NCBI GenBank assembly: GCA_963422375.2
Contig: OY729427.2
Coordinates: forward strand, 352,001-416,000
Direction of reading: 5' to 3'
Length of the DNA stretch: 64,000 nucleotides
From: Bryobacterales bacterium
GTDB lineage: Bacteria > Acidobacteriota > Terriglobia > Bryobacterales > UBA6623
Shown here: positions 25,801-28,800 of the stretch, one piece after another
Layout: every line of letters starts with the position of its first letter
How positions within the stretch are numbered: the first letter of the stretch is position 1
Made by a program: the position numbers

Positions 25801-28800
25801 GTACTCCACGTCGCACTTCGCGTGCCCGCCCATGTGGTACACCGTCTCGCCCACAGTCGAGTCCCAGTCCGGAACGAGCCGTCGAATCCGAACCGACTGA
25901 CAGGCGGTGGCAGCGCAGGCAGCCATTCACCACCTCGAGTGAGACGGGGTATGACGCGCATCGGGCAGAATTCAGGTTGACTCGCAGCAAGCCGATGTGC
26001 TACAGTCTTGTTTCTGGGCGGGAGGTGCGCTTTCGTAGCGGACTTCGGATGCGTCGCCTATCAAGGCAGAGTCAGCTAGCGGAACACCGGCAGACAGATC
26101 GACTGCGAGAGGCGAGGCGATGCGGAATCCCCCTTGACCGCTCGCATGGACTTATGTACAGTGATTACAGGACGTTGAGTTCCGGCGAACGTAGCGAGCA
26201 GAGCCTACCCCTTGGTTGAGCCGTCGCTGCTCGCAACAACCTGCCTAGATCATTGAAATCCAAAGAGTTAGCGAGCATGGCGTCTCCCCGGCCGCAAGGC
26301 CGGGGCCTCATTGAAGCCAGGTCTCCAAGGACACCCCCGTGGTGTCCCACGTCGTCTCCCCGGCCGCAAGGCCGGGGCCTCATTGAAGCTGGGGCACGTA
26401 AACCCTCTACCCATAGCGTAACAGGGCGTCTCCCCGGCCGCAAGGCCGGGGCCTCATTGAAGCCACGTGCGGGGGCCGATGCAGGGCGACGGCCTGCTGG
26501 GCTCGTCTCCCCGGCCGCAAGGCCGGGGCCTCATTGAAGCGTACTAGGCTCGCGATAACGTACCATCCGTGGATCGCTGTCTCCCCGGCCGCAAGGCCGG
26601 GGCCTCATTGAAGCCAGGGCGGTTCCGTGCCCGTGATGCTCCAGCGCACGGGTCTCCCCGGCCGCAAGGCCGGGGCCTCATTGAAGCGTAATAGTCGCCG
26701 GGAGCAACGACCTCGCTGCTCTCGAGTCTCCCCGGCCGCAAGGCCGGGGCCTCATTGAAGCGACTACTGGGAGTGCGTGGTGGAGCATCTCGAGCTGTCT
26801 CCCCGGCCGCAAGGCCGGGGCCTCATTGAAGCGACCGCCGGATCGTGCTCGCGTCAGAGCACGAATACGAGCGTCTCCCCGGCCGCAAGGCCGGGGCCTC
26901 ATTGAAGCGCCGCCGCGTTGCGCGGCCTGAATATCGCCGTCGCCGTCTCCCCGGCCGCAAGGCCGGGGCCTCATTGAAGCCAATCAACTGATTACGTCAT
27001 GCAGCCCGGGCCCGGTCGTCTCCCCGGCCGCAAGGCCGGGGCCTCATTGAAGCATGAGCAGGACTGCTTGCCCCTCGGTCATGTCGGTGTCTCCCCGGCC
27101 GCAAGGCCGGGGCCTCATTGAAGCATCCGTCCACCCTGTGGGTGGACAGACACCGGGGCGTTCGTCTCCCCGGCCGCAAGGCCGGGGCCTCATTGAAGCT
27201 TTTCAAATATTTCCTAGTGTCATCGGTTTTTCCGGCGTCTCCCCGGCCGCAAGGCCGGGGCCTCATTGAAGCCTAGACTATTTTTCAGTCGTGCCGACAC
27301 TACGTATGTCGTCTCCCCGGCCGCAAGGCCGGGGCCTCATTGAAGCGGGATAGGTCATGGTGTCTCCTCCTGGCCGGCGCGGTCTCCCCGGCCGCAAGGC
27401 CGGGGCCTCATTGAAGCCAGCTGCGAGCCCGCGGGATAGCCCGTGCCGGGCCGTCTCCCCGGCCGCAAGGCCGGGGCCTCATTGAAGCTGGTTCGAGCGC
27501 CTGAAGGAGCTGCGGGTCCAGCGCGGTCTCCCCGGCCGCAAGGCCGGGGCCTCATTGAAGCTACATCCGGGTGCCTCCGCCGGAGATGGTCCGCCCATCG
27601 TCTCCCCGGCCGCAAGGCCGGGGCCTCATTGAAGCAACCACCTCGCGCCGCTTCGTCCACCCCGCGCCTCTGGTCTCCCCGGCCGCAAGGCCGGGGCCTC
27701 ATTGAAGCCTGGCAGCTCGTGCCCGGTAATCACCAGGCCTACCGTCTCCCCGGCCGCAAGGCCGGGGCCTCATTGAAGCGTTTCGGCGTACAGCTCCTCC
27801 AGGCGCTTGACCTGCAGCGTCTCCCCGGCCGCAAGGCCGGGGCCTCATTGAAGCCATCGCGACGCGCTCGAGAAATTGGCCAAGATCAAGGAGTCTCCCC
27901 GGCCGCAAGGCCGGGGCCTCATTGAAGCATCAAATCCGGCCTGATAGTAACGACCTGCTTGGGCCGTCTCCCCGGCCGCAAGGCCGGGGCCTCATTGAAG
28001 CCCTGCGTAGATCGCGTCTAGCAGAGGCTTGCGGATCATGTCTCCCCGGCCGCAAGGCCGGGGCCTCATTGAAGCAGGCTTAGATCGACTTCTTCCGTCA
28101 TATCGGAGGAGTCTCCCCGGCCGCAAGGCCGGGGCCTCATTGAAGCGCGGTGCTGGCATAGGTGCGCGTAACGCGCACCACCTGGTCTCCCCGGCCGCAA
28201 GGCCGGGGCCTCATTGAAGCTCGCAGCTGCTGCGGGGCGACGTGCGGGCGCGGACCGAGTCTCCCCGGCCGCAAGGCCGGGGCCTCATTGAAGCTCGACC
28301 TCGGGCATTTCGATCCACTGAGCGTACCCCAGTCTCCCCGGCCGCAAGGCCGGGGCCTCATTGAAGCGGCCTGAATGGAGTACGTAGGGATGGACGCTTT
28401 CGCGTCTCCCCGGCCGCAAGGCCGGGCCCTCATTGAAGCCGAATTCTAACCTCCTGCTTAGCGTCCGACGCGTATAGGCGGTCTCCCCGGCCGCAAGGCC
28501 GGGCCCTCATTGAAGTCGCGACCCAGCTTGGCGGCAAGGGCAGACTGCAGTCTGGAGTGCAAGCGTTGGGCGAAACGAGTTTCTTGGCCCACAACCGTGC
28601 GACTGTCAAGGCAAGTTGCCGCCGAGGATACTGTGCAGCAGGCGCATCTGCCATCGGAAGGGCGGGAATGTGAGTTCGCCGCCAGCCGTCGAATCGGCGC
28701 AGCGCTTAGCCAAGTCGCTGGCCCTGCTGCGTGGAACAGTCAATTCTTCGGCAGGCTCTGAACCATGGGCGCACGGACCCCGGCCATCCGCAGAAGCATC

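Follow-up and report, generated by a model that had tools for sequence, protein, structure and literature searches.

A CRISPR array with spacers against two resident prophages, and three layers by which its host might tolerate them

How can a bacterium persist as the lysogen of two phages that its own CRISPR array remembers? The question is raised by a Bryobacterales genome of 5.996 Mb whose single array lies in the 64,000-nucleotide stretch of DNA analysed here (the window; Table 1). Twelve of the 30 spacers (40%) match the genome outside the array, and all twelve matches fall in two resident prophages, called D and P below. The survey's finding was that the lysogen withstands massive self-targeting by means of prophage inhibitors of type I-G and type III-B interference. 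We favour, with a probability of roughly one half, a composite reading in which the array records how the host and two temperate phage lineages, now resident in the same genome, fought an arms race, and in which the lysogen would survive through three layers: sequence escape, a prophage-encoded Csx16, and a type I-G system that is off.

The array itself is well defined. Repeat extraction and a genome-wide k-mer scan upheld the reported single array of 31 repeats and 30 spacers, the other nine candidates of the scan being short tandem repeats; its position was real, and only the bounds, given before as 26280–28503, had to be moved to 26282–28516. Identical repeats (29/31), unique spacers of 35–41 nt, and cas2 and cas4/1 genes 1.5–3.7 kb upstream mark it as a CRISPR array. 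The last two repeats carry one and two changes, which identifies the far side as the trailer end, and because these degenerate repeats stand opposite, the stretch between cas4/1 and the first repeat probably includes the leader; family searches with the ORFs of this stretch gave no matches. The repeat is absent from all 40 relatives searched, so the CRISPR island looks imported.

Table 1. Features of the CRISPR island in the window, with the prophage targets of the self-matching spacers. Mismatch positions are counted within the spacer; the flank is the 5' flank of the protospacer; sense and antisense refer to the target gene.
Feature	Position in window	Strand	Description
cas2	22544..22834	+	Pfam CRISPR_Cas2, 73 bits
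cas4/cas1 fusion	23032..24819	+	type I-G adaptation gene; Pfam Cas_Cas1 285 bits and Cas_Cas4 61 bits in a single 595-aa ORF
Non-coding stretch and putative leader	24820..26281	+	cas4/1 to first repeat; ORFs without third-position GC bias
CRISPR array	26282..28516	+	31 repeats of 36 nt, 30 spacers; repeat end ATTGAAGC
sp3	26464..26504	+	P, portal gene; 1 mismatch (7); TTC; sense
sp6	26688..26725	+	D, 355-aa ORF; mismatches 4, 5, 7; ATC; antisense
sp7	26762..26796	+	P, portal gene; mismatches 3, 5, 21; TTC; sense
sp8	26833..26872	+	D, 176-aa ORF; mismatches 9, 38, 40; TTC; sense
sp9	26909..26944	+	P, tape-measure gene; perfect; CTC; sense
sp13	27200..27236	+	D; 5 mismatches (3, 4, 5, 32, 37); TTT; antisense
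sp15	27347..27381	+	D, RBS and start of 176-aa ORF; perfect; CTT; antisense
sp16	27418..27452	+	D, intergenic inside minus-strand late operon; perfect; TTC
sp17	27489..27525	+	D, DarB-like 5185-aa gene; perfect; TTC; sense
sp21	27780..27818	+	P, capsid gene; mismatches 3, 24, 26; TTG; antisense
sp22	27855..27892	+	P, capsid gene; mismatches 21, 22; TTC; sense
sp27	28221..28258	+	P, portal gene; perfect; TTC; sense
csm6	28807..30132	-	CARF-6H-HEPN, motif RNSSILAH; Pfam, NCBIfam TIGR02710
cmr6 (RAMP)	30266..31324	-	Pfam RAMPs; name from gene order
cmr5	31321..31719	-	Pfam Cas_Cmr5, 101 bits
cmr4 (RAMP)	31716..32666	-	Pfam RAMPs; name from gene order
cmr3	32600..33910	-	Pfam Cas_Cmr3, 184 bits
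cmr2/cas10	33907..35769	-	GGDD at residues 404-407; no HD domain
cmr1 (RAMP)	35786..37165	-	Pfam RAMPs; name from gene order

Self-targeting was reproduced by comparing the 30 spacers with the genome by blastn-short, with mismatches counted ungapped over the full spacer length. Six spacers (sp3, 7, 9, 21, 22 and 27) match the three copies of prophage P (C2:1312078-1322033, C1:8147-18099 and C3:483990-493942, where C1 to C3 are contigs), and six (sp6, 8, 13, 15, 16 and 17) match prophage D (C2:2411931-2450729). Reversed spacers (0/30) and ten sets of shuffled ones (0/300) matched nothing in the genome. The finer details reported before also stood: the recount gave no mismatch in sp9, 15, 16, 17 and 27 and one to five in the other seven, the four-nucleotide protospacer flanks were identical in 12 of 12 cases, and the gene calls gave the same split of seven sense, four antisense and one intergenic target. 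The 5' flank is TTC in 7/12 protospacers and TTN in 9/12; set against the TTC frequency of the prophage background (0.84-1.09%), 7/12 has a probability of about 6e-12. Spacer acquisition by the I-G Cas4/1-Cas2 module would explain this flank; the I-G Cas4/1 is reported to select GAA on the PAM strand, equivalent to TTC on the opposite strand (PMC10504553).

The first layer of the favoured reading would lie in the targets. Half of the mismatches (10/20) fall at PAM-proximal positions 1-8, where 4.2 are expected (P=0.004, in a test of these 20 mismatches only; proximal versus distal, 10 versus 4), at positions 3, 3, 3, 4, 4, 5, 5, 5, 7 and 7, with none at position 6. Five protospacers carry such seed mismatches, and two of the perfect ones (sp9, sp15) have an off-consensus PAM; only sp16, sp17 and sp27 are both perfect and TTC-flanked. 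Judged from sequence, self-targeting is thus weaker than it appears, most targets being predicted to be poor I-G substrates: the fully competent ones number three, or perhaps five if sp22 and sp8 still count. The word 'massive' was therefore an overstatement for I-G. Among the changes in the portal and capsid protospacers, 8/9 are synonymous, which also fits neutral divergence of related phages. By array position, the perfectly matching spacers predate most of those with mismatches, a misfit to a simple chronology of escape. Two further ideas were dropped. One was that phages in circulation might match the mismatched spacers without error, but the exact sequences of sp3 and sp6 were absent from IMG/VR; the other, a survivorship filter by which an active I-G system keeps only spacers unable to cut the resident prophage, is contradicted by the three perfect TTC-flanked targets.

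Build-up of spacers against resident prophages has been described for type I systems (Nobrega et al. 2020, PMC7708048). The present array resembles the cases in the available text of that study in its many prophage spacers, consensus PAMs, clustered targets that suggest priming, and intact cas genes. It differs in that the system is I-G, a co-resident III-B system would share the array, self-targeting reaches 40%, and tolerance is partly readable from seed and PAM changes.

The second layer would concern type III-B, which is identified by a Cas10/Cmr2 with the cyclase motif GGDD, Cmr3, Cmr5 and three RAMP proteins; Pfam and NCBIfam matches bore out both this locus and the I-G effector loci as first described. 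The array crRNAs could serve the I-G effector as well as the adjacent Cmr complex. Five of them are complementary to expected transcripts, two perfectly (sp15, sp16); the antisense sp15 is usable by type III. Searches of the genome with PF01881 and PF10040 found no stand-alone cas6, so use of the array by III-B would depend on the I-G protein Csb2, which may stand in for Cas6 in crRNA processing. Silas et al. 2017 (PMC5576922) describe a type III-B system that employs the crRNAs of type I against phages which evade the latter by PAM or seed changes. Shared with that case are a III-B module that adjoins a type I array and phage targets with PAM or seed changes. Here, however, the type I partner is I-G rather than I-F, crRNA sharing is presumed, and the phage side appears to answer with a ring nuclease.

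That candidate answer is a 96-aa Cas_VVA1548 gene, which corresponds to Csx16 (TIGR02620; PADLOC Csx16): it scores 49.5 bits against a curated cut-off of 25, and the genome matches score 48.7, 46.1 and 42.2 bits. It had been placed beside the CI repressor gene in both prophages. This holds for P, where one copy lies directly downstream of CI, and fails for D, where CI (C2:2407667-2408353) and csx16 (C2:2451585-2451875) are far apart and csx16 has its own predicted near-consensus promoter. All of the family-conserved residues (T8, R9, H10, H32, R70, G71 and E73, in D numbering) are found in the D copy. In prophage P, the C1 Csx16 carries Ala in place of Thr8, which is nearly invariant in the family, the C3 csx16 is truncated at the 5' end (the start and first nine codons, residues 1-9, are missing), and the C2 copy of the prophage has a restriction-enzyme fragment in the csx16 position. 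Structure prediction, which gives models and not measurements, yielded a CARF-like fold (homodimer model, 0.64 versus 0.00) whose best structural match is AcrIII-1/Crn2 (DUF1874), a viral ring nuclease that is likewise small, dimeric and virus-carried; like it, the prophage protein would destroy cA4. Csx16 has been described as a cA4-specific ring nuclease (Hoikkala et al., PMC12409355). With the cellular Csx16 proteins in the available text of that paper, the prophage copy shares the Pfam/PADLOC family, a length of about 96 aa, the TRH...H...RG.E residues and a predicted dimer; unlike them, it is prophage-encoded and lies outside the cmr locus.

Csx16 would matter only if the host Csm6 senses cA4, and a cA4-specific enzyme would be irrelevant if it senses cA6. 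In Foldseek, the first eight ranks for the Csm6 model all go to Thermus thermophilus Csm6, which is activated by cA4 (E about 1e-11), with cA6-type Csm6 proteins ranked lower (E 2e-9 and 1.5e-8); from this fold rank we infer a response to cA4. A profile of Csm6 homologues retrieved only T. thermophilus Csm6 from the PDB, at a non-significant E of 0.18-0.22, and a PDB sequence search gave no match for Csx16 or Csm6. In the available text of PMC12409355, cA6-type Csm6 proteins are not found together with ring nucleases. Since the Cas10 has GGDD and lacks the HD domain, and the Csm6 model is nearest the cA4-activated Thermus enzyme, prophage Csx16 is a plausible anti-type-III factor. It would degrade cA4 ahead of Csm6 activation and so disarm III-B, a system that point mutations do not evade; without the HD nuclease domain of Cas10, removal of cA4 would leave only target-RNA cleavage. 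The III-B half of the claim of prophage inhibitors is thus plausible, and of the host's two CRISPR systems, one is probably turned off by a small prophage-carried enzyme. Where type III backs up type I, phages would be expected to counter both, as these appear to do with altered seeds and PAMs for the one and a ring nuclease for the other.

The locus would give Csx16, a family known before as a cellular regulator, a natural setting as phage counter-defence: the gene lies on a mobile element that is targeted by a co-resident CRISPR system. The family was counted in only 2/28,114 cultured phage genomes according to PMC12409355. Our tblastn search of cultured phage genomes gave a single match, in Methanobacterium virus PhiF3, whereas at least 38 viral loci in IMG/VR, on uncultivated viral contigs, carry it (two peptide patterns; the scan used a 7-sequence alignment, a 49-sequence one being too diverse), and here it sits inside a lysogeny module. 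A Cas_VVA1548 match occurs in 1/30 other genomes of the genus, and a word-indexed homologue search with the D protein returned only itself.

The third layer follows from the three perfect TTC-flanked targets: with these present, I-G interference would have to be off in the cell, either through a prophage inhibitor or because the effector genes are unexpressed or non-functional. Type I-G is recognised here by the Cas4/Cas1 fusion, the effector gene set and the 5'-TTC PAM on the protospacer strand. Two operons (C1:426486-434084 and C2:289671-295937) hold all four open genes, cas3g, cas8g, cas7g (csb1) and csb2 (a cas5/6 fusion), each matched end to end by NCBIfam equivalog models; at a third locus cas3g is split into two ORFs. 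The effector genes are not contiguous with the adaptation genes and array: 46 kb and a change of strand separate the array from the nearest operon, which has IS1595 and ISNCY fragments at its borders in a genome where IS copies abound; the other two loci belong to a different contig. Cas3g has an HD motif as well as helicase motifs I and VI, and helicase motif II reads DEVQ in the Cas3g nearest the array and DEAH in the other two.

Might the prophages, then, encode a dedicated inhibitor, the first AcrIG, that shields the three perfect targets from Cas3g or the I-G complex? We regard this as possible and hold it tentatively. It draws support from the two full-length effector operons with their Cas3g motifs, from the intact adaptation genes and the 29 identical repeats, and from the seed and PAM footprints, which imply past I-G pressure; under Acr protection, however, such escape would not be selected. 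The csx16 gene of D lies in a low-GC cargo stretch (0.49-0.61 versus about 0.70) and is flanked by paralogous ORFs that form two tandem families, a setting that also speaks for an inhibitor. These neighbours, on the other hand, have no Pfam or PADLOC family; none of 12 neighbouring proteins recurs beside csx16 among 40 viral loci; and none of the 121 prophage ORFs scanned (61 of D, 60 of P) matches an anti-CRISPR PHROG. In the ESM Atlas, the 201-aa neighbour scored at best 0.85, to viral hypothetical proteins, and the 176-aa one gave nothing. A search for PF06924, which we presumed to be KlcA/ArdB-like and which came back as DUF1281, gave no match, and its control was without a hit as well, which makes it uninformative. 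In the literature searched we found no inhibitor of type I-G, and the I-G half of the inhibitor claim stays a prediction for which no candidate was found. A precedent is Xanthomonas albilineans, in which 24 self-targeting spacers are tolerated by means of AcrIC11 and AcrIF12Xal (PMC10810201), a study that also points a way to new Acrs by screening mobile-element genes. In the available text of that study, extensive self-targeting likewise stands beside intact type I systems (I-C and I-F1); here no inhibitor was found, and I-G activity is putative.

The data are accounted for no less well by an I-G module that is silent or defective, a reading we hold just as tentatively: no inhibitor would be needed, and the perfect targets would never be cut. 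That CRISPR-Cas decay is rare in self-targeting genomes, in a survey of more than 100,000 genomes (PMC7708048), weighs against it, as do the four open effector genes, HMM-matched end to end, at two loci; moreover, without Csb2 the III-B system too would have no source of processed crRNA, no cas6 having been found. The distance, strand and IS borders of the nearest operon argue the other way, together with its DEVQ motif, the split cas3g and the imported look of the island, and old spacers that match perfectly are compatible with a lysogeny established once interference had been lost.

A bolder version is a two-tier kit carried by these two unrelated prophages, with a lysogen-expressed Csx16 as a new AcrIII family and, as second tier, the first type I-G inhibitor, encoded in the D cargo at C2:2447.8-2454.1 kb and/or in the P ORFs between CI and the methylase gene. 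We consider it doubtful; if true, lysogeny would be open to phages against which the host holds twelve spacers. Genomes with heavy self-targeting have proved good sources of anti-CRISPRs. The present one has three perfect I-G targets with a PAM, two I-G operons that look intact and few prophage cargo candidates, making the locus a natural place to seek new anti-CRISPR genes.

Less likely still is that the array serves III-B only, the I-G loci being orphans and the prophages tolerated since most targets are silent or sense-matched. The csm6 and cmr genes do start 290 nt past the array end, seven of the 12 matching spacers are sense and hence useless to type III, and sp21 and sp16 match late genes. 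Yet a strict TTC flank and seed-clustered mismatches are type I features, no cas6 was found with PF01881 or PF10040, and the genes to which sp6, sp13 and sp15 are complementary, on the plus strand next to the second recombinase gene, may be expressed in the lysogen.

The favoured reading further presumes that spacers and targets share a cell, and both prophages are real. D (C2:2405602-2465342) is inserted in tRNA-Pro between 50-bp att repeats and carries head, portal, terminase and DarB-like genes, the terminase gene with an apparent frameshift; P carries terminase, portal, protease, capsid, tape-measure, collagen-like fibre, CI and integrase genes. An assembly artefact, in which immune non-lysogens were merged with lysogens so that no cell has both spacers and targets, is very improbable: with 2.5-11.6 million contig records each, the runs in which the locus occurs are metagenome-like, and C1 and C3 break within P, whose host flanks are permuted between contigs, but estimated contamination is 0.36% and the three P copies, with differing immunity regions and a distinct hybrid att core each, are genuine integrations. 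For D, the merging that the survey had named as a possible refutation is unlikely because its contig depth, which by the tool's own caveat does not measure the share of cells, is in three runs the same as the depth of its chromosomal flank (242 versus 226-262, 39.2 versus 38.6-40.1 and 17.5 versus 10.6-18.9). No contig in three runs of two studies joins across an empty D attachment site; a further run (X6) held scraps only, a tRNA-like 50-mer among them, and four joints with sides of 21-22 letters were disregarded. The host flank and 14 kb of D, including the targets of sp16 and sp17, show 0 differences in runs X1, X3 and X4, which come from two studies.

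Twelve of the 30 spacers in the array (sp1–sp30) match elsewhere in the genome, compared with none of 30 reversed and none of 300 shuffled spacers, which bears out the survey's finding that the array targets resident prophages. Six match the portal, capsid and tape-measure genes of prophage P, a collagen-fibre prophage present in three copies (contigs C1, C2 and C3), and six match prophage D, a DarB-type prophage on C2. Five matches are perfect. The 5' flank of the target is TTC in seven cases of 12 against a background of ~1% (P=6e-12), and all 12 flanks reported by the survey were identical on recheck; these flanks fit the recognition of GAA on the PAM strand that PMC10504553 describes for the type I-G Cas4/1. 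The last two repeats of the array are degenerate, which places the leader on the cas side and makes sp1 the newest spacer; ~1.5 kb without coding signal separates cas4/cas1 from the array. A k-mer scan of the 5.996-Mb, three-contig genome found no second array. The 540-aa ORF upstream of cas2 (window 20745-22367), which has no family match, may be a frameshifted gene: the first half of its product is rich in arginine and seems to be read out of frame, and codon bias is better in an overlapping ORF (20830-21870). A DDE transposase gene lies just past cmr1 (window 37755-39161), and the whole genome is very IS-rich, with several 1.5-1.9 kb families of dozens of copies each at 88-98% identity.

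Coordinates of the CRISPR-Cas and prophage features (window positions unless a contig is named)
Feature	Position	Remarks
cas2	22544-22834	
cas4/cas1 fusion	23032-24819	
CRISPR array	26282-28516	plus strand; 31 repeats, 30 spacers
csm6, then cmr6 through cmr1	28807-37165	strand opposite to array
I-G locus 1	C1:426486-434084	cas3g, cas8g1/csx17, cas7g, csb2; end-to-end NCBIfam matches
I-G locus 2	C2:289671-295937	cas3g, cas8g2, cas7g, csb2; end-to-end NCBIfam matches
I-G locus 3	C2:114715-122335	cas3g in two ORFs, 536 aa and 575 aa
Prophage P, C2 copy	C2:1307816-1350163	
Prophage D	C2:2405602-2465342	
Prophage D integrase	C2:2405685-2406827	left end
Prophage D CI gene	C2:2407667-2408353	left end
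Prophage D csx16	C2:2451585-2451875	96 aa

Three targets, those of sp16, sp17 and sp27, are perfect and carry the TTC flank, which means that the cell's I-G system is not cutting. The others are perfect with an off-consensus flank (sp9, CTC; sp15, CTT), have TTC with mismatches outside the seed (sp8, sp22), or are mismatched in the seed (sp3, sp6, sp7, sp13, sp21). NCBIfam models identify three I-G effector loci. Between the array and the nearest of them, locus 1, lie 46 kb; this locus is on the opposite strand and has IS fragments at its borders. Locus 3 looks degraded; it also carries a short 'Cas3-extension' ORF and an 818-aa csb2. No clear defect was found in two of the three operons, the sole oddity being helicase motif II of the locus 1 Cas3g (C1:431508-434084), which reads DEVQ versus DEAH in the other two loci. 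The survey had proposed that the lysogen survives through prophage inhibitors of both I-G and the type III-B Cmr system. Half of this is supported: published family biochemistry makes Csx16 a plausible anti-type-III ring nuclease. No I-G inhibitor candidate was found among the prophage ORFs, nor any I-G anti-CRISPR in print. A prophage-borne anti-I-G inhibitor is a prediction, and a silent I-G system is an equally good explanation.

Each spacer was aligned to its target to position the mismatches. PAM-proximal positions 1-8 hold 10 of the 20 mismatches versus 4.2 expected (binomial P=0.004), at positions 3, 3, 3, 4, 4, 5, 5, 5, 7 and 7, with position 6 free; the last eight positions hold only four. 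Of the nine changes within the portal and capsid genes, eight are synonymous. Phages once exposed to a type I system that depends on seed and PAM would be expected to show such a pattern, but the sample is small, and related phages may simply have diverged neutrally. The targets are clustered, five of prophage P within 2.7 kb and four of prophage D within 3.1 kb, which fits primed acquisition or uptake near a packaging end and resembles how self-targeting spacers accumulate in the study of Nobrega et al. (PMC7708048).

On the type III side, host Cas10/Cmr2 has GGDD and lacks the HD domain, and host Csm6 has its HEPN motif, so immunity should run through cyclic oligoadenylate and Csm6. Type III systems are not evaded by point mutations. 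According to PMC5576922, phages that escape type I through PAM or seed changes can still be caught by a III-B module drawing on type I crRNAs. Five crRNAs (sp6, sp13, sp15, sp16, sp21) are complementary to expected transcripts, and none of their targets has a repeat-tag-like flank. Searches with PF01881 and PF10040 detected no stand-alone cas6 in the genome, so III-B would depend on Csb2. By Foldseek, the Csm6 structure model (pLDDT 84) is closest to Csm6 of Thermus thermophilus, a cA4-activated enzyme, which fills the eight best rows (E ~1e-11; cA6-type enzymes, 2e-9 and 1.5e-8).

The genome has three matches to the Cas_VVA1548 family, every one in a prophage. This family is csx16 (PMC3936711), an assignment also made by PADLOC, and Csx16 has been shown to be a cA4-specific ring nuclease (PMC12409355); by analogy with that biochemistry, the prophage-borne Csx16 is plausibly an anti-type-III ring nuclease. 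The D copy keeps every invariant or nearly invariant residue of a 49-sequence alignment, its structure model reaches pLDDT 96.7, its predicted homodimer scores 0.64 versus 0.00 for the best control, and its gene has a near-consensus promoter of its own. The P copies vary: on C1, csx16 lies directly downstream of CI, from which a cro-like gene diverges, and its product carries Ala where Thr8 is nearly invariant in the family; on C3, a ~120-nt deletion removed the start; on C2, a 151-aa restriction-enzyme fragment occupies the position. The family comprises 1133 cluster representatives at E<=1e-3, and two peptide patterns alone retrieve at least 38 csx16 loci from IMG/VR; among 139 ORFs scanned beside csx16 in 10 of these 38 loci, matches include DNA polymerase, terminase, ligase and methylase. 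Self-targeting spacer build-up against prophages and viral ring nucleases are already known kinds; what is new here is the subtype I-G, the phage-borne Csx16 and a visible two-layer answer to type I and type III defence. Of 30 other genomes of the genus, one, G016, has a Cas_VVA1548 match: a protein of 460 aa (L076:1132-2514), in which pentapeptide repeats follow the Csx16 domain. The pentapeptide-repeat fold is a DNA mimic, and this protein may be a dual anti-defence fusion.

A less likely account is that the genome merges immune non-lysogens with lysogens of one population; the sequencing runs with the locus are metagenome-like. In three runs from two studies, a 19.3-kb stretch from the host flank through the first 14 kb of D at its left end is covered without differences, contig depth is equal either side of the D junction, and no contig bridges an empty D site; this speaks weakly against a mixed population and covers D, not P. 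An exact 50-bp repeat, its right copy within tRNA-Pro(CGG), delimits D, which also has head, portal, terminase, primase and RecT genes and a 5185-aa DarB-like gene. Its large terminase gene (C2:2443537-2445154) is split between two frames, one ORF holding the N-terminal domain and another, 35 nt away, the C-terminal domain; D may be defective, or there may be an assembly indel. Two families of tandem paralogous ORFs of unassigned function flank its csx16 (C2:2447839-2454059), where GC drops to 0.49-0.61: one of ~4 copies starting MTYP.PTYTCLG, whose region is targeted by four of the six D-matching spacers, and one of three or four copies of a 201-aa type.

Assembly duplication of P is contradicted by immunity halves only 91-98% identical (structural halves, >99.9%) and by a separate 17-bp hybrid attachment core in each copy, which together argue for three real integrations of related phages. 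The C1 and C3 copies cross the contig ends. Host flanks are permuted between contigs (C2:1307816/1350163, C1:22269/1824034, C3:479729/28679), the cores pairing C2-left with C1-right, C3-left with C2-right and C1-left with C3-right. The duplications would fit a single 6.0-Mb circle carrying P three times in direct orientation, in which case the contigs either arose by recombination or reflect a choice of the assembler; among 30 relatives in the genus, nine are assembled as one contig, of 4.4-7.2 Mb. A type II restriction-modification module (a 763-aa REase_II-like ORF and a C5 methylase) adjoins the P immunity region at C2:1337447-1341369 and its C1 and C3 equivalents. A 2.47-kb head-tail segment (C2:1315954-1318419 in P, C2:2438739-2441184 in D) is common to these otherwise unrelated prophages, with 95.6% nucleotide identity; the P version includes a tRNA-Arg(CCT) gene.
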